The notes under the pieces are model-generated. The model was given only the letters and a program-made list of their open reading frames with translations. It did no database searches and was not told the origin of the DNA. The translations under genes were made by a program, and so were the position numbers. A DNA stretch of 6,622 nt. It comes from a virus (lineage: Duplodnaviria > Heunggongvirae > Uroviricota > Caudoviricetes). The first letter of the stretch is position 1. Each line of letters opens with the position of its first letter. Shown here one piece after another: positions 1 through 6,622 of this stretch. Location of the stretch: positions 1 to 6,622 of the IMG/VR virus record IMGVR_UViG_2648501392_000016, one strand, 5' to 3'.

Positions 1-24
1 GATTCGGTATCAGAAGAGGTGAGT

Positions 25-1095
25 ATGGCTAACGCCTGGCTCAGATTATGGCATGACATGCCAAATGACCCTAAGTGGCGAACAATTGCCAGGGTGTCAG
101 GGCAGCCAATTGCAACAGTGATGGCAGTGTATATCCACCTCCTGGTGAGCGCGTCACGAAATGTCACGCGAGGTCACATTGATGTCACGACAGAAGATTT
201 GGCAAGTGCGCTCGACGTGACAGAAGAGGTAATTGATTCAATTTTGCAGACGATGCAGGGGCGGGTACTTGATGGTGATTTAATCACTGGATGGGAAAAA
301 CGCCAGGTGCTGAAAGAGGACAACGGCAATATTTCGCAAACCGCAAAATCTCCTGCAGAGCGCAAGAGGGCGCAGCGAGAGAGGGAAAGAAAGCGGGAAC
401 AAAATGGCGATTGTCACGGCGCGTCACGAAATGTCACGCACATGTCACGACGAGTCACGACAGATAAAGATACAGATAAAGATACAGATAAAGATACAGA
501 TAAAGATACAGATCAAGAAGATCAAAACACTATGGTCCATGGCGTAAAAAACGCCACGAACCAGGCAGGGGATGTTCAGACCGTCAATCCTGGTCAGCCA
601 GCAGGCACGACACCGGAAGCCGATTCGGGCGCTGTGCAGCAGGTGATGACCGCAAGGCCGGAGCAATCACACCAACTGCAGCAGCCCGAAGCCGATTCCG
701 CCATTCAGCGGGAAGCCGATCGGGTAGTCCCGGAAAACACCGGGCAGTCTGTGGGACGAGTGGATTATCCGGATGTGTTCGAACAGGTCTGGCGGGAGTA
801 CCCGTTGCGTGCCGGAGCAAACCCGAAGAAATCCGCATTCAGTGCCTGGAAGGCCAGATTGCGCGAGGGGGTGCCACCAGAGACCATGCTGGATGGTGTG
901 AGGCGTTACGCGAGATACCTGGCGGCGACCGGGAAAGCGGGAACGGAATTTGTTCAGCGAGCGACGACGTTTTTTGGGCCGGACCGGAATTTTGAAAACC
1001 CCTGGTTGCTCCCGGTAAGCGGCACGAACAACCAGCGTTGCGTGAATCACATTTCTGAACCGGACACTGAAATACCGCCGGGATTCAGGGGGTGA
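25..1095 (+). CDS. Phage replication initiation protein, YdaU/DUF1376-like (O-like initiator); in-frame alternative GTG start at 19
   Basis: Long ORF; AGAGG(14-18)/GAGGT(16-20) RBS ahead of ATG 25. N-terminus (MANAWLRLWHDMPNDPKWR...) recalled as resembling Rac prophage YdaU-type proteins. Sits directly upstream of a DnaC-like loader gene, the usual O-P arrangement. Contains internal iterons and a low-complexity TDKD linker. Confidence 0.7.
   Translation: MANAWLRLWHDMPNDPKWRTIARVSGQPIATVMAVYIHLLVSASRNVTRGHIDVTTEDLASALDVTEEVIDSILQTMQGRVLDGDLITGWEKRQVLKEDNGNISQTAKSPAERKRAQRERERKREQNGDCHGASRNVTHMSRRVTTDKDTDKDTDKDTDKDTDQEDQNTMVHGVKNATNQAGDVQTVNPGQPAGTTPEADSGAVQQVMTARPEQSHQLQQPEADSAIQREADRVVPENTGQSVGRVDYPDVFEQVWREYPLRAGANPKKSAFSAWKARLREGVPPETMLDGVRRYARYLAATGKAGTEFVQRATTFFGPDRNFENPWLLPVSGTNNQRCVNHISEPDTEIPPGFRG
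153..189. repeat. Iteron-like direct repeat array A: GTCACG/GTCACA at 153, 163, 173, 184, with an inverted copy CGTGAC at 215-220
   Basis: Read directly from sequence: four hexamer copies spaced 10, 10 and 11 bp apart (one helical turn). The 19-mer gcgtcacgaaatgtcacgc at 151-169 recurs at 421-439. Confidence 0.5.
413..459. repeat. Iteron-like direct repeat array B: five GTCACG copies at 413, 423, 433, 444, 454; candidate replication-origin iterons
   Basis: Read directly from sequence: five perfect GTCACG hexamers at 10-11 bp spacing inside the initiator gene, immediately upstream of the tandem repeat. Analogous to lambda ori iterons lying within the O gene. Confidence 0.5.
460..519. repeat. 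12-bp tandem repeat (acagataaagat), four perfect copies plus one degenerate copy; encodes (TDKD)n in the initiator protein
   Basis: Read directly from sequence: perfect copies at 460-471, 472-483, 484-495, 496-507, degenerate copy 508-519. In frame with the CDS and translated as TDKDTDKDTDKDTDKDTDQED. Confidence 0.85.
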
Positions 1096-1101
1096 CGTGT
1101 C

Positions 1102-1848
1102 ATGAAAAACATTGCGGCAGTTGGGGTTCTTGAACGTATTCGCAGACTTGCACCACAGGGGGCGGTTCCACCGTACCGGACGGTGGAGGAGTGGCGGGAA
1201 TGGCAACTTGCTGAAGGACGAAAACGCAGCGAGGAGATTAACCGCCAGAATCGCCAGTTGCGGGTGGAAAAAATCCTGAATCGTTCGGGCATCCAGCCTC
1301 TGCACAGCAAATGCTCGTTTGCGAATTATCAGGTGCAGAATGACGGGCAAAAATACGCGCTGAGCCAGGCCAAATCCATAGCTGACGAACTGATGACCGG
1401 GTGCACGAATTTTGTGTTCAGCGGTAAAACCGGCACCGGGAAAAATCACCTTGCAGCGGCGATGGGTAACCGGCTGATGGCGAAGGGGCGCAGCGTGATT
1501 ATCGTCACCGTGTCTGATGTCATGAGCGTGTTGCATGACAGCTACGACAACGGCAAATCCGGGGAAAAATTTTTACAGGAGCTTTGCGGGGTTGATTTGC
1601 TGGTCCTGGATGAAATAGGCGTTCAGCGGGAGACGAAAAACGAGCAGGTGGTATTACACCAGATAATTGATCGCCGGACAGCATCACTGTGCAGTGTCGG
1701 GATGTTAACAAACCTGAATCATGCCGCAATGAGCACGCTTCTTGGTGAGAGGATTATGGACCGGATGACCATGAGCGGTGGTCGATGGGTGACGTTTAAC
1801 TGGGATAGCTGGCGTCCAAATGTCAGCAATATGAGGGTTGTGAAGTAA
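1102..1848 (+). CDS. DnaC/IstB-like AAA+ ATPase, phage replicative helicase loader (Rac YdaV-like)
   Basis: 248-aa ORF starting 7 nt after the upstream stop. Walker A-like FSGKTGTGKNHLAAA and Walker B LLVLDEIG are visible in the translation; size and position match DnaC-like phage replication proteins. Confidence 0.85.
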   Translation: MKNIAAVGVLERIRRLAPQGAVPPYRTVEEWREWQLAEGRKRSEEINRQNRQLRVEKILNRSGIQPLHSKCSFANYQVQNDGQKYALSQAKSIADELMTGCTNFVFSGKTGTGKNHLAAAMGNRLMAKGRSVIIVTVSDVMSVLHDSYDNGKSGEKFLQELCGVDLLVLDEIGVQRETKNEQVVLHQIIDRRTASLCSVGMLTNLNHAAMSTLLGERIMDRMTMSGGRWVTFNWDSWRPNVSNMRVVK

Positions 1849-1869
1849 TTTTGTCCGGAGGAAATTTTA

Positions 1870-2640
1870 ATGGAAACCGTATCTGACGCACTGAAAGCAC
1901 TGAAAAAAGCCTCTTCACATGTGGTGGCAGCTCGCCTTGGAATCAGTCGTGAAGAGGCTGTCAACGAGCTGTGGGAACTCAAAAGAAATGGCGTCGTTGA
2001 TAAAACTGGTCACACCTGGTTTCTGGCTGGCGAAGGTGAATCCCTGGTAACCGAAGAGCTGCCAGTAAAATCTGAAGCACAGGATATGCTGACCGGGGAG
2101 GTCGAACAAAAAGTTACCGCAGACATGATGATTGAGTTTATCGGTCAGGATGGGGCTAAAACGTGTGAGGAACTGGCGGGTAAGTTCGGCGTCAGTACTC
2201 GCAAGGTTGCTTCCACGCTGGCGGTGGTAACCGCAACGGGGCGGCTGGCACGCGTTAATCAGAGCGGTAAATTTTGTTACTGCATGCCGGGCGATAATTT
2301 ACCAGCAGAGTCGAAAGCCGCGCTGGTAACGGAAAATGATGGTAAGGCCTTTCCTCAGCCAGCAGGTGCTGCGTTACCAGTCCGGGAAGCCGCAACACAG
2401 GAAGAAATTAAAACAGAAACTGTGGCGGACATTGTGCAGCCGTTGCTATCGTTTACCGAAACGCAAGCAGATGAGCTGATTTTTCCGTCCCTGCGCAGGG
2501 CAAACCTGGCGCTGCGCAGGGCGAAAAGTGATGTTCAGAAGTGGGAGCGAATCTGCGCCGCGCTGCGGGAGCTGAACAAGCACCGGGATATTGTTCGACA
2601 GATTACTGATTCTTCCCGCCGTGTTGTATCGGAAAAGTGA
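1870..2640 (+). CDS. Phage hypothetical protein (256 aa); N-terminal region may be winged-helix-like
   Basis: GGAGG RBS at 1857-1861, 8 nt before ATG 1870. Uninterrupted ORF in the same orientation as the replication genes. No recognisable catalytic motif. Confidence 0.65.
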   Translation: METVSDALKALKKASSHVVAARLGISREEAVNELWELKRNGVVDKTGHTWFLAGEGESLVTEELPVKSEAQDMLTGEVEQKVTADMMIEFIGQDGAKTCEELAGKFGVSTRKVASTLAVVTATGRLARVNQSGKFCYCMPGDNLPAESKAALVTENDGKAFPQPAGAALPVREAATQEEIKTETVADIVQPLLSFTETQADELIFPSLRRANLALRRAKSDVQKWERICAALRELNKHRDIVRQITDSSRRVVSEK

Positions 2641-2655
2641 TTGCCGAAGGCGCTT

Positions 2656-3081
2656 ATGGCAAAAGTATTTACACAAGAAGAGCGAGAAAAAATTAAAGGG
2701 CAGGTTGTTGAGCTAGTACGCCGGAGTGGGCGCGAGACGTTACGGCAACTGGAAGCCAAGACAGGTGCGACAAGATATCTGATGAGCGTTCTTGCCAGAG
2801 AGCTGGTTGCCAGTGGTGATGTATATCACTCTGGCTATGGGTTGTTCCCGTCAGAACAGGCGCGTAAGGACTGGCAAAACGCCCGCAAAAAACTCTCGAG
2901 GGCAAAGGTGAAGAAACCTGTTGTGGTTGATCCGGGCCTTATCTGGACATTACCCGACGGAGAAATACACCGCTACGACAGGCGTATGAACATAATCTGT
3001 CGCGAGTGCCGGAAGAGCGAAGCTATGCAGCGTGTACTGGCATTTTATCAAGGAAATGTTAGATATTTTAGACGTTACTAG
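2656..3081 (+). CDS. Phage hypothetical protein (about 141 aa); track ORF begins at TTG 2641 but ATG 2656 with a GAAGG RBS is preferred
   Basis: ORF directly follows the upstream stop at 2640; GAAGG at 2645-2649 precedes ATG 2656. Basic C-terminus containing a CxxC pair (CRECRK). Does not match lambda NinB as I recall it. Confidence 0.6.
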   Translation: MAKVFTQEEREKIKGQVVELVRRSGRETLRQLEAKTGATRYLMSVLARELVASGDVYHSGYGLFPSEQARKDWQNARKKLSRAKVKKPVVVDPGLIWTLPDGEIHRYDRRMNIICRECRKSEAMQRVLAFYQGNVRYFRRY

Positions 3082-3108
3082 ATTAAAGAGCATTAGTTCA
3101 GATGTGAA

Positions 3109-3137
3109 TTGACATTTTCATGGCGCAGGGTAGAGCC
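3109..3137 (+). promoter_or_regulatory. Candidate sigma70 promoter for the cargo island (perfect -35 TTGACA, weak -10); alternative extended -10 TGcTACACT at 3213-3221
   Basis: TTGACA at 3109-3114 with TAGAGC 16 bp downstream (3 of 6 matches to TATAAT). Lies in the 153-bp gap between the phage genes and the QueH-like gene. Sequence-only guess. Confidence 0.2.
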
Positions 3138-3234
3138 AGCGTGGTTGTCCGCTTTGCGTCAAAACCAGAGATTACCAGATTTAGACATATATTCCCGATA
3201 GCCCTGCTCTGATGCTACACTCTGTGCTATTTTC

Positions 3235-3921
3235 ATGACCCCAATAAAAATATTTATGACTATTGCTGATTTCAAACGGCCTAAATTGGAGCTTCCAAAC
3301 GGGGCAAACAAACTACTACTGCACTCTTGCTGTGCTCCATGTTCCGGTGAAGTGATGGAGGCGCTTCAGGCCTCGGGAATCGACTACACCATCTTTTTCT
3401 ACAACCCGAACATTCATCCTCAGAAAGAGTATTTAATTCGTAAGGATGAAAATATTCGCTTTGCTGAACAACACGGCGTGCCGTTTATCGATGCTGATTA
3501 CGACACCGACAACTGGTTTGAACGTGCCAAAGGAATGGAATGGGAGCCTGAGAGGGGGATCCGTTGTACCATGTGTTTTGACATGCGTTTTGAGCGGACA
3601 GCGTTGTACGCTGCTGAAAATGGTTTCAGTGTGATCAGTAGTTCACTGGGCATTTCACGCTGGAAAAATATGCAGCAGGTTAACGAGTGTGGGCGGCGAG
3701 CTGTTGCGCATTATCCGGGTATGGTGTACTGGGATTATAACTGGCGCAAGCAGGGCGGCTCGTCCCGTATGATTGAAATCAGCAAGCGCGAAAAATTCTA
3801 TCAGCAGGAATATTGTGGCTGTGTGTATTCTCTGCGCGATACCAATCTACACCGCAAATCTCAGGGACGCCCTCTTATCAAAATTGGCCAACTCCACTAC
3901 GGAAAAGAAGAGAAGGAGTGA
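3235..3921 (+). CDS. QueH-family (DUF208) epoxyqueuosine-reductase-like Fe-S protein; alternative start ATG 3256
   Basis: The translation carries the [11 protein letters not shown] and FYNPNIHP motifs that I recall as hallmarks of DUF208/QueH, plus further Cys pairs (CTMC, CGC) consistent with metal-cluster ligation. No strong SD before either candidate ATG. Confidence 0.65.
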
Positions 3922-3991
3922 TTTTATGGATCACCTTTCTGATTGATTTCATATTGGCGAGGTGACGTGAGTTAAGTAGAATTGCTGCGGG

Positions 3992-4016
3992 TGCCTGAGG
4001 CTGTCTGCCTCAGGCA
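3992..4016. other. Perfect 9-bp inverted repeat (TGCCTGAGG, 7-nt loop, CCTCAGGCA) between the QueH-like and methyltransferase genes
   Basis: Read directly from sequence. No T-tract follows (downstream is gaacaccaaaagg), so it is not a canonical intrinsic terminator; it could be a protein-binding site or an RNA stem-loop. Confidence 0.4.
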
Positions 4017-4099
4017 TGAACACCAAAAGGCAGATAGAGAAAGCCCCAGTTAACATTACGCGTCCTGTAAGACGCTCAACATTAATCTGAGGCATATGG

Positions 4100-5224
4100 A
4101 TGCGGATGAAAGAATTAAATAAATTCAGAGTGATAGACCTCTTTTGTGGGGCAGGTGGATTATCTTATGGTTTTCTTCATGGAGAGATGTCTGACTACTT
4201 TGAAAGTATCCTTGCTATTGATAATAATGCTGCAGCTATAAATACCTACAATGCCAATTTTGGTTTGCATGGAGTTCAGGCAAATATTGAGGAGTGGGCA
4301 TCCAGCAATACTGTTCCTGAGGCTGATGTGGTCATAGGTGGCCCCCCGTGTCAGGGATTCAGTTTATTGAATAAGAATCGTTATGGTGATCACCGAAGAG
4401 CATTGTGGGAGCCTTATATGGATGTCATTGAGCGTTCAAGGGCTTGTATGTTCGTCATGGAAAATGTCCCCGGATTGCTGATAAGCGATGAGTTTGCGGA
4501 CATTACGTTTAGAGCGAAATCCATGGGCTTTATTCTGCTTAATCCAATGGTGTTGAATACTGCTGACTATGGAGTACCTCAGACAAGAAAACGAACGATA
4601 GCAATCGGTATCAAACGAGAACTCTTCGATGTGCATAGTATTCCGGCGTTCCCGCCAGCACCAACGCATCGTTCCCCTGATAAGGATGTCGCTTTGCCTG
4701 AATGGGTCTGTACGCGTGATGCAATTGGTGACTTACCTGCTCCTGTTGGAACTGATATTCGTAATGAACTTCCTCCGCTGAACTTACATTTTGGGCGTAA
4801 TCCCACACCTGTTTCTCTGGAGCGATATAAAGCGGTTCCACCAGGAGGTAACCGTTTCGATTTACAGAAAAAAAGACCTGATATAACCCCGGCGTGCTGG
4901 CTAAAAAAGAAATCTGGAGGGACCGATTTGTTTGGACGTCTGTGGTGGGACAAACCTTCAGTAACGATTCGTACTGAGTTTTTCAAACCGGAGAAAGGGC
5001 GATATTTACATCCGGAAGAGGATCGGCCAATAACTCATCGTGAGGCAGCGAGATTAATGTCTTTTCCTGATAATTTCATTTTTACCGGTTCAAAAACTGA
5101 GATTGCAAAGCAGATCGGGAATGCTGTTCCACCGCTATTTGCGGCAAAAATCGCACAATATGTGTATGGAGTTTTGCAGGGACGGTATAAGAATAACATC
5201 AGTAAGAATAGTCAAGCAGCCTGA
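4100..5224 (+). CDS. DNA (cytosine-5)-methyltransferase, type II R-M modification subunit
   Basis: Canonical m5C-MTase motifs in the translation: motif I DLFCGAGGLSYGF, motif IV GGPPCQGFS, motif VI ENVPGL, motif VIII QTRKR, motif X GNAVPP. GAGG RBS at 4088-4091. Confidence 0.9.
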   Translation: MRMKELNKFRVIDLFCGAGGLSYGFLHGEMSDYFESILAIDNNAAAINTYNANFGLHGVQANIEEWASSNTVPEADVVIGGPPCQGFSLLNKNRYGDHRRALWEPYMDVIERSRACMFVMENVPGLLISDEFADITFRAKSMGFILLNPMVLNTADYGVPQTRKRTIAIGIKRELFDVHSIPAFPPAPTHRSPDKDVALPEWVCTRDAIGDLPAPVGTDIRNELPPLNLHFGRNPTPVSLERYKAVPPGGNRFDLQKKRPDITPACWLKKKSGGTDLFGRLWWDKPSVTIRTEFFKPEKGRYLHPEEDRPITHREAARLMSFPDNFIFTGSKTEIAKQIGNAVPPLFAAKIAQYVYGVLQGRYKNNISKNSQAA

Positions 5225-5237
5225 AGGAAATCCAGAA

Positions 5238-6116
5238 ATGAATGGAGATTTGGTTGACAGCATAGTTGGTTTTGCTGAAGCCAGAAAGGAGTTTCATGCC
5301 CAATTGTTACTGAATACGCTCACAATTAATACTGCCGGAGTTGTTAGTAACGCAGATAGCAGTAACAAAAACAGTAAAGCTATAGCAAGAGAAATTGCTC
5401 GCTTCTTGCAGGCTGAAACGATTGGTGAACGTGTTGCAGGGCAAACATCTGGTAATCAGTTTGAGAGTATCTGCGCAGAGTTTATAGAAAAAACCTTTTT
5501 TAAACTCAGCCACTTACGCCCTGGAAAATGGAATGTACATCAGGTTTCTGGTAGAAACAGATTAGAGATAGCTAAATATGAACAATATGCCCATCTTATA
5601 GCATTGGATAGTGCTGCAAAAAGTAATCCTCAGCTAGCTGCTGCACTGGGGAGTGATTATACGATTTCACCAGATATTATTGTTGAAAGAGAACCTGAAT
5701 GTGATCAAGTTATCAACAGTCCTGAATTACTGGTGGATGATTCTGTTACCCGCATGTCAGCTCTCAGGAGTTCGAATGGTGGGAAACCAATATTACACGC
5801 AAGTATTTCCTGCAAATGGACAATAAGAAGCGACCGGGCCCAGAATGCTCGTTCTGAGGCATTAAATCTTATTCGCAACCGTAAGGGAAATCTCCCTCAT
5901 GTAATGGTTGTTACTGCTGAGCCTACTCCAAGTCGTCTGGCGTCTATTGCTCTTGGTACTGGTGATATAGATTGCGTGTATCATTTTGCGCTTTATGAAC
6001 TTATATCAGCAGTTGAAATACTGGGGCTCAGCGATGCAGCTGACATGCTTTCCGTGATGGTTAATGGTAAAAGATTAAAGGATATTTCTGATCTTCCCTT
6101 GGATCTTGCAGTCTGA
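5238..6116 (+). CDS. Type II restriction endonuclease, NgoMIV/Cfr10I/Bse634I family (predicted CCGG-core site, possibly GCCGGC); start ATG 5238 preferred over track start 5103
   Basis: AGGA RBS at 5225-5228, 9 nt before ATG 5238, which lies 13 nt after the MTase stop. The translation has PD at 145-146, SCK at 191-193 and RSDR at 197-200. Numbered from ATG 5238, E76, D146, K193, R197, D199, R200, E207 and R233 all sit at a constant +6 offset from the NgoMIV residues E70, D140, K187, R191, D193, R194, E201 and R227 as I recall them from the literature. Confidence 0.75.
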   Translation: MNGDLVDSIVGFAEARKEFHAQLLLNTLTINTAGVVSNADSSNKNSKAIAREIARFLQAETIGERVAGQTSGNQFESICAEFIEKTFFKLSHLRPGKWNVHQVSGRNRLEIAKYEQYAHLIALDSAAKSNPQLAAALGSDYTISPDIIVEREPECDQVINSPELLVDDSVTRMSALRSSNGGKPILHASISCKWTIRSDRAQNARSEALNLIRNRKGNLPHVMVVTAEPTPSRLASIALGTGDIDCVYHFALYELISAVEILGLSDAADMLSVMVNGKRLKDISDLPLDLAV

Positions 6117-6188
6117 CATCTCTACGTAAATAGAGTCTGTCATATTTTAACTGTGATGGCACGTCATTGACTTCAGTACATTTTTACT

Positions 6189-6214
6189 AACCCGCTTCGC
6201 GGGTTTTGTTTTTT
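6189..6214 (+). terminator. Rho-independent terminator closing the R-M operon
   Basis: 7-bp GC-rich stem AACCCGC/GCGGGTT with a 3-nt loop, followed by the T-tract TTTTGTTTTTT; 73 bp downstream of the endonuclease stop. Confidence 0.7.
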
Positions 6215-6286
6215 CCTGGCATTCTGGTTTACAATCCACACGCCAGCCTGAACAACTGGCACCTGCTGCGCCAGCAGAGACAACCG

Positions 6287-6532
6287 ATGGCGCACAATAC
6301 CAAACACCACAATTCTGATGCCGACCCTGCCAGCAGACACGGACGGCGCTCTCACGCATTCAAATATGACTGGTACCAGCATGACCAATGCACTGAAGAA
6401 CAGGCCGAGTGGCTGATTCAGAATTACCGCAGACGTGGATACCAGTTTCAGAAAGGCCTCAGTCCTGACTTCCGACGCTGGATAATTTCCGTCAGGCTCC
6501 CTTATTCCGAACGCCCGCCGCGTCCGTCCTGA
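6287..6532 (+). pseudogene. Hypothetical ORF apparently truncated by the IS insertion (its stop codon is supplied by the IS terminus TGA)
   Basis: The open frame (from 6206; first ATG with a weak RBS at 6287) runs without a stop until the TGA at 6530-6532, which is the first three bases of the IS inverted repeat. The product is not recognised and coding status is uncertain. Confidence 0.3.
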
Positions 6533-6622
6533 ACCGCCCCGGGAATCCTGGAGACTAAACTTCCTGAGAAAGAGGTAAACAGGATGACTAAAAATACTCG
6601 TTTTTCCCCTGAAGTCCGTCAA
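6530..6622 (+). mobile_element. IS3-family insertion sequence (IS629/IS1203-like), left end; continues beyond the window
   Basis: Terminal sequence TGAACCGCCCCGGG... and an OrfA N-terminus MTKNTRFSPEVRQ recalled as the IS629/IS1203 group; 5'-TG terminus is typical of the IS3 family. Confidence 0.7.
6584..6622 (+). CDS. IS3-family transposase OrfA (partial, N-terminal 13 codons in window)
   Basis: GAGG RBS at 6572-6575 then ATG 6584; translation MTKNTRFSPEVRQ matches the remembered OrfA start of IS629-like elements. Truncated by the window edge. Confidence 0.7.
   Translation, partial: MTKNTRFSPEVRQ

Follow-up and report, generated by a model that had tools for sequence, protein, structure and literature searches.

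A QueH-family gene carried by Rac/Qin-type lambdoid prophages of Escherichia, a probable cobalamin-independent backup of QueG

Escherichia coli is unable to synthesize cobalamin de novo and depends on its uptake, and the reduction of epoxyqueuosine (oQ) in this bacterium is reportedly cobamide-dependent, as stated in the title of a 1988 article by Frey et al. QueG has been characterized as a cobalamin/[4Fe-4S]-dependent epoxyqueuosine reductase (PMC5175355, PMC4646009), and QueH as a cobamide-independent alternative to it (PMC6461909). Here a queH gene is described that lies on the + strand of a 6,622-nucleotide (nt) stretch of viral DNA (Caudoviricetes; positions 1 to 6,622 of the IMG/VR record IMGVR_UViG_2648501392_000016). 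This whole stretch, referred to as the window, corresponds to the early-right region of a lambdoid prophage of the Rac/Qin type. Based on the evidence presented below, a probability of roughly 0.7 is assigned to the reading that the gene encodes a functional QueH, captured together with its native promoter element as a prophage moron, which backs up QueG when corrinoids are lacking.

The closest described enzyme is the crystallised QueH of T. maritima. Six conserved cysteines of this protein (CC...CxxC...CxC) are said to bind a [4Fe-4S] cluster and an adjacent iron (work attributed to Li et al., 2021), and its Asp13 reportedly occupies the third ligand position of the mononuclear iron. The window protein resembles the T. 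maritima enzyme (PF02677/DUF208/IPR003828; PDB entry 7LC5) in its full-length profile match, in the six cysteines and in the fold. The maximal open reading frame (ORF), on the + strand at 3235-3921, encodes 228 amino acids (aa), and residues are numbered on this form throughout. Its translation matched the Pfam profile PF02677 (QueH) with 221.5 bits (cutoff 23.5; E 1.1e-65), residues 27-201 covering profile positions 1-174 of 175, and phmmer matched it to 7LC5 at E 8e-22. The original prediction had assigned the ORF to the QueH family (DUF208) on account of an 11-residue signature (residues 27-37), the FYNPNIHP motif (residues 55-62) and additional cysteine pairs (C111/C114 and C194/C196). The profile search bears out this assignment, and the occurrence of these signatures together with the profile match is, at the level of sequence, far beyond chance.

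C32, C33, C111, C114, C194 and C196 of the window protein align with C9, C10, C87, C90, C169 and C171 of T. maritima QueH, and these six positions are essentially invariant across 61 diverse representatives drawn from 50%-identity clusters, which were compared together with the crystallised protein. An alignment of 42 sequences has 16 invariant columns, namely seven cysteines and N59, Y66, R69, E106, R110, R118, K144, Q191 and G195; the window protein keeps all 16, the six predicted ligands included. The corresponding codons are located at 3328..3342 (+) for C32-C33-A-P-C36 (the CCAPC motif, aligned with C9, C10 and Asp13 of T. maritima, with C32, C33 and C36 invariant in the 42-sequence alignment), at 3565..3576 (+) for C111-x-x-C114 and at 3814..3822 (+) for C194-G-C196, the latter two pairs being invariant as well. 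The cysteine at position 36, where T. maritima has Asp13, was considered as a possible variant active site (CCAPC vs CCAPD) and this idea was rejected, as cysteine is the family norm at this position (57 of the 61 representatives, with Asp in only one). A further difference from T. maritima QueH is a basic C-terminal extension of about 25 residues, which is common to proteobacterial orthologs and absent from the T. maritima protein.

An AlphaFold2 (AF2) model of the window protein built on the 42-sequence alignment reached a mean predicted local distance difference test score of 94.6 and a predicted template modelling score of 0.90. The top PDB matches of this model in Foldseek were five T. 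maritima QueH entries (9D86, 7LC5, 7LC7, 9DCO and 9DEU), with target-normalised template modelling (TM) scores of about 0.90-0.92, root-mean-square deviations (rmsd) of 1.2-2.0 Å and E values of 1e-12 to 1e-14; on 7LC5 the model superimposed with TM 0.92 and rmsd 1.2 Å. The next folds, those of TtuA, LarE, TilS and other PP-loop proteins, appeared at E values of about 5e-5, nine orders of magnitude weaker. By its sequence, its cysteine pattern and its predicted fold, the ORF is a canonical and intact member of the QueH family.

The enzyme as such is not new, since its family assignment is already present in RefSeq, where the protein is named 'epoxyqueuosine reductase QueH' (WP_000150294.1). 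The exact window protein occurs on at least 1,000 contigs under the title 'MULTISPECIES: epoxyqueuosine reductase QueH [Enterobacteriaceae]'. No model of NCBIfam release 20 matches the window protein, so that the RefSeq name must stem from another rule. With regard to the start of the gene, the ORF that had been outlined is present with its signatures and cysteine pairs, although 3235 is unlikely to be its start: ATG 3235 reads ATT in one prophage allele (L009), residues 1-10 of the model are of low confidence, and RefSeq as well as the orthologs begin at the second ATG. The coding sequence (CDS) of queH is therefore most likely 3256-3921 on the + strand, encoding 221 aa, with the start used by RefSeq/PGAP.

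In every E. coli context examined queH directly follows lygF (DUF977, Ren-like; 2656..3081, +; PF06163, phrog_142), the constant upstream neighbour of the gene in Rac/Qin-type prophages. Related phages carry the lygF and hokD region without queH, which marks the gene as a discrete, variably present insertion, and the arrangement is best explained by a moron that sits in a variable slot between lygF and hokD. Like the lambdoid morons and lysogenic-conversion genes (bor and lom of lambda) and the auxiliary metabolic genes of phages, queH is a single gene placed between conserved phage modules, variable in its presence, dispensable for the phage cycle, of host origin and preceded by a promoter-like element of its own. 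It differs from the lambdoid morons in that no intrinsic terminator was detected and in that its product is a tRNA-modification enzyme and not a surface or virulence factor. Carriage by a lambdoid prophage had originally been proposed from the look of the rest of the window, and the neighbours, lambdoid replication genes upstream and restriction-modification (R-M) genes downstream, are as described; it is further supported by HannyBb (PP925841.1), an isolated and complete temperate phage that encodes queH at 95% identity (33011-33697) under the annotation 'hypothetical protein'. A clearly defective prophage, in which an insertion sequence (IS) disrupts the exonuclease and the portal gene is frameshifted, also retains an intact copy. 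In the PHROGs resource the family is phrog_3217, of 'unknown function', and its profile, which begins only at residue 41, does not include the CCAPC motif; this profile reflects truncated gene models, and the function has been missed by phage resources.

Relatives of queH were found on at least 214 IMG/VR contigs, and among 5,426 complete E. coli genomes, 995 carry queH DNA (985 of them at a coverage of 80% or more). As expected for hosts that normally use QueG, all 5,426 genomes contain queG, meaning that every carrier of queH has both genes. Several other database entries suggested a wider distribution among phages. One of them, a 49.6-kb virome scaffold titled 'UNVERIFIED: Bacteriophage sp.' (MT835504.1; 27818-46402), was rejected as a phage QueH because it is bacterial chromosome, with ABC transporters, argH, argC and topA around the gene. 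Divergent QueH proteins in other 'Bacteriophage sp.', Staphylococcus, Listeria and Acinetobacter 'phage' records were likewise not accepted as evidence of phage carriage; MT835504 was the one record examined, and the remaining short records are probably host contamination. In these data, the Escherichia lambdoid lineage is the only verified case of a phage-borne QueH.

The nearest relatives of the protein outside Escherichia are QueH-annotated proteins from many Enterobacterales and other Proteobacteria (78-92% identity), the chromosomal QueH of other Enterobacterales being 84-92% identical to the window protein. Unlike these chromosomal copies, the window copy resides on a lambdoid prophage, and its host possesses QueG already. 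The chromosomal genes occupy diverse surroundings: in Providencia queH lies between dapE/tmcA and purC/bamC, in an Erwinia-type genome between purL and glrK, and in Photorhabdus it adjoins benE, while one chromosomal copy (L094) adjoins dcm-vsr and another, 90% identical, adjoins a LysR regulator and acetyltransferases. Scandinavium, Kluyvera and Enterobacter likewise carry the gene in core or non-phage neighbourhoods. When the surroundings of the gene (within 5 kb) were compared in the 80 species-representative genomes whose QueH is closest, E. albertii alone had lambdoid neighbours (O-like, DUF1627, DUF977, YdaT).

The closest chromosomal copy, from Scandinavium (L101), shows 84% DNA identity over window positions 3206-3925, and the prophage allele L009 shares in blastn only positions 3207-3925 with the window, which is the same block as the chromosomal homology. 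The minimal unit common to the phage contexts and the nearest chromosomal ortholog is thus 3206..3925 (+), comprising a promoter-like element, the ORF and 4 nt. The best explanation is that a Rac/Qin-type lambdoid lineage of Escherichia took queH as a single-gene unit from the chromosome of a related member of the Enterobacteriaceae. The conservation of QueH in Proteobacteria is unusually high, with 75-92% identity across Alpha-, Beta- and Gammaproteobacteria. In addition, the proteobacterial gene stands alone, its chromosomal site differs from one examined lineage to the next (L092, L094, L003, L004, L097 and L098, and loci L100-L179), and the TGCTACA[A/C]T motif described below always precedes it. 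The differing sites and the shared motif suggest frequent horizontal movement of a self-contained promoter-plus-gene unit.

Just inside the edge of the captured unit, 34 nt before ATG 3256, the + strand contains the extended -10-like element TGCTACACT (3213..3221; hexamer TACACT at 3216-3221), which fits the extended -10 pattern TGnTAnnnT. The motif TGCTACA[A/C]T is found 31-37 nt before the start of the chromosomal orthologs of Scandinavium, Kluyvera, Enterobacter (where two of the three loci compared have a variant of it), Symbiopectobacterium and the Erwinia-type locus, and the upstream DNA of these orthologs is otherwise unrelated. Since the motif lies at a conserved distance in phage and chromosomal copies and the unit begins just upstream of it, we infer that TGCTACACT is the native promoter element of queH, captured together with the gene and shared with the chromosomal queH of other Enterobacterales.

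The prophage QueH would convert oQ34 to queuosine (Q34) in tRNA-Asp, tRNA-Asn, tRNA-His and tRNA-Tyr, and in a lysogen it would duplicate the step usually performed by the cobalamin-dependent QueG of the host. It is predicted to catalyse the same reaction on tRNA as QueG (b4166) in the same cells, with an unrelated fold and cofactor set; QueG needs imported cobalamin whereas QueH does not, and queG belongs to the core genome (5,426/5,426 genomes) whereas queH is accessory (995/5,426). The gene may be expressed from its own promoter in uninduced lysogens. The likely benefit, given that E. coli cannot make cobalamin de novo, would be the completion of Q-tRNA without corrinoids, much as MetE backs up MetH. 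Enzymatic activity in E. coli and the sparing of B12 are both predictions. A role as a tRNA-modification moron, which had been one of two suggestions for the gene, remains the best explanation, considering its identification as QueH by sequence and predicted fold and its carriage by prophages and by HannyBb.

That the gene is maintained by selection is indicated by the ratios of nonsynonymous to synonymous substitution (dN/dS, Nei-Gojobori method), which amount to 0.041-0.050 when the window allele is compared with three other prophage alleles and to 0.047-0.060 among those three, with dS values of up to 0.46. The pairs formed by the window with L007 and with L008 share phage-specific flanks, which means that their divergence, at least, arose in the phage context. 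Prophage queH is under purifying selection. It could be argued that the gene is a neutral passenger that was acquired through illegitimate recombination and persists by hitchhiking with successful prophages, with no function under selection in E. coli, since every E. coli genome encodes QueG for this reaction and the slot is known as a hotspot for cargo that varies (hokD, an R-M cassette, a KwaB-like pair, DUF1971). Such a passenger would hardly be expected to display dN/dS values of 0.04-0.06 among alleles that diverged in phage genomes, to be kept at 80% or more of its length in 985 of 995 genomes with all catalytic cysteines retained, to be more constant than its neighbours in the slot, or to stay intact in a clearly defective prophage, and this explanation is regarded as very unlikely.

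Several observations weigh against a backup role for QueH. A simple scan for -35/-10 consensus promoters found none upstream of queH, TGCTACACT being left uncalled because no -35 is present, and a simple scan of 2900-4300 found no intrinsic-terminator-like site (the hairpin at 3990-4015 lacks a T-run and belongs to a sok/hok remnant discussed below). Since queH is oriented like the early-right operon, its expression could be confined to induction. Part of the low dN/dS could date from chromosomal hosts if several independent captures took place. To our knowledge, no phenotypic or decoding difference has been described between oQ-tRNA and Q-tRNA. Deletion of queG was reported to have no growth effect in one condition (PMC11841063). 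For these last two reasons, the selective benefit of queH is uncertain.

The orientation and position of queH, directly after the replication genes and lygF, are those of a delayed-early gene, which together with the lack of a consensus promoter or a terminator isolating it would also fit a function in the lytic phase. QueH would then be mainly co-transcribed with the early-right (pR-type) operon after induction; by turning the remaining oQ-tRNA into Q-tRNA it would allow optimal decoding of phage genes in which NAU/NAC codons abound, and the phage rather than the lysogen would benefit. A viable isolated phage, HannyBb, does carry the gene. We know of no decoding difference between oQ and Q on which such tuning could act, however, and the extended -10 element of the chromosomal orthologs has been kept upstream of the prophage gene. 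Furthermore, queH is intact in a defective prophage incapable of lytic growth, and the prophage tRNA genes seen (Ile, Arg, Thr and Gly) do not encode Q-tRNAs. Lytic-phase tuning appears unlikely on balance, and completion of Q in lysogens is preferred.

An enzyme that acts on DNA was the other suggestion made for this gene. Phages can carry 7-deazaguanines in their DNA (PMC6884629), and a QueH-like protein might act on 7-deazaguanine derivatives in phage DNA as part of an anti-restriction hypermodification, a possibility to which the location of queH near DNA methyltransferases and the R-M pair in some prophages lends some appeal. The resemblance to the known phage 7-deazaguanine systems, in which DpdA is accompanied by FolE, QueD, QueE and QueC (Hutinet et al., 2019), consists in the presence of queuosine/7-deazaguanine metabolism in a phage genome. 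In contrast to those systems, neither DpdA/TGT nor any of the preQ0-synthesis proteins (FolE, QueD, QueE, QueC) is annotated in the complete HannyBb genome (90 features) or in a 35-kb prophage (L001; 54 features), as far as annotation goes, and QueH acts at the last, tRNA-bound step. Hutinet et al. (2019) reported that the viruses they analysed, the 7-deazaguanine phages among them, had no homologs of QueA, QueG or QueH. The window protein, 84-92% identical to the housekeeping chromosomal QueH, displays no phage-specific divergence. Moreover, we are not aware of any epoxyqueuosine-type base in DNA. A DNA-modifying role is therefore considered extremely improbable.

Downstream of queH, the + strand contains an R-M cassette with blastn boundaries at 4094..6187, located in the slot where most relatives have hokD. 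It encodes a C5-cytosine methyltransferase (4106-5224, +; PF00145; RefSeq start 4106, within a longer ORF from 4100) and an NgoMIV-family endonuclease (5238-6116, +; PF09015). The longest ORF of the endonuclease, 5103-6116, begins at TTG and overlaps the methyltransferase by 122 nt. The short form is probably the correct one, as RefSeq starts the protein at 5238 and residue 64 of the long ORF is the first to be covered by the Pfam match.

The position of queH at the head of a cargo island immediately upstream of the R-M genes had been thought unusual, and it was examined whether the gene might be a functional partner of the R-M pair or of a defence island, e.g., a restriction regulator or accessory. 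In the window queH does immediately precede the methyltransferase and the endonuclease, and other defence-like cargo (the KwaB-like pair) uses the same slot as R-M. Yet the R-M DNA was detected in 60 of the 5,426 genomes vs 995 with queH, and among 80 IMG/VR loci queH is followed by hokD in 57 and by R-M in 19, by both in none, with the contig ending before the slot in four. The 3' neighbour of queH is hokD in L006, a KwaB-like pair and then hokD in L007, a 370-bp insert and then hokD in L008, and DUF1971 in L009. The G+C content of the R-M cassette (0.41-0.44) is distinct from that of the flanks (about 0.5), and chromosomal queH orthologs as a rule have no R-M neighbour.

The junction itself supports an independent origin of the two modules. 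Collinearity with the hokD-bearing prophage L006 ends at 4093 and restarts at 6188, and a match to the sok antitoxin (RF01794) at 3989-4169 scores 61 bits against a gathering score of 59 in Rfam. Positions 3989..4093 (+) thus represent a 5' remnant of a hokD/sok type I toxin-antitoxin, including the hairpin at 3990-4015, cut where the R-M cassette begins. This break in collinearity and the sok remnant indicate, on the DNA evidence, that the R-M cassette took the place of the hokD toxin segment, with a sok/hok 5' stump left behind. The boundary at 4093/4094 and this remnant lie between queH and the R-M genes. A partnership of QueH with restriction is highly improbable in view of these data, and the special significance initially attached to the adjacency is not supported: by its distribution and boundaries it is an incidental juxtaposition of two independent cassettes in a hotspot.

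Type II R-M has apparently taken the place of a hok/sok type I toxin-antitoxin, i.e., one addiction-type module has been exchanged for another. A 42-bp segment at 3976-4017, which contains the hairpin GCCTGAGGC-tgtct-GCCTCAGGC at 3990-4015, flanks the KwaB-like (Kiwa-type) two-gene insertion in L007 (at 5242-5283 and 7261-7302), and it may mark a recombination site for cassette exchange in the hotspot.

The region upstream of lygF encodes an O-like replication protein (19-1095), a DnaC-like loader (1102-1848) and a DUF1627 protein (1870-2640). Within the O-like gene a tandem array at 412-462 holds about five copies of a 10-11-nt unit, TGTCACGACA; by analogy with lambda, this array may be iteron-like and part of an origin embedded in the O-type gene. 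The adjacent array at 460-518 holds 4.9 copies of the 12-nt unit ACAGATAAAGAT and encodes (TDKD)n. The total aligned length varies by tens of bases among close relatives, possibly as a result of copy-number variation in the repeats. At the other end, the last 93 bases of the window (6530-6622) lie outside the best whole-window matches, all of which end at 6529, and only a PPompW-type phage record reaches the end, which points to another mosaic junction near 6529.

In the literature searched, no report of a phage-borne QueH/DUF208 protein or of WP_000150294 was found, and the matches to 'QueH + prophage' were coincidental. What is new with respect to that literature is that Escherichia acquires QueH only via Rac/Qin-type prophages. 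No new mechanism is opened by this finding, which provides a clean and testable case of lysogenic conversion affecting tRNA modification, in which a phage carries a host tRNA-modification gene with its putative native promoter. A bolder proposal, which is at present speculative and rather doubtful, sees in the prophage QueH a lysogenic-conversion factor of wide distribution (about 18% of complete E. coli genomes) by which Q maturation becomes uncoupled from corrinoid import. BtuB, the B12 transporter, serves E colicins and some phages as their receptor as well. If the proposal were true, Q-tRNA would stay fully matured in lysogens despite a scarcity of B12 in the gut or the loss or repression of BtuB, the cost of resistance by loss of the BtuB receptor would be lowered, and for the first time a phage-delivered enzyme of the queuosine tRNA pathway would have a demonstrated host phenotype.

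Apart from this proposal, if the enzyme is active, about one in five E. coli strains would possess a B12-independent route to queuosine that K-12 lacks, with a bearing on experiments on tRNA modification, cobamide dependence and translational fidelity that are compared across E. coli strains.

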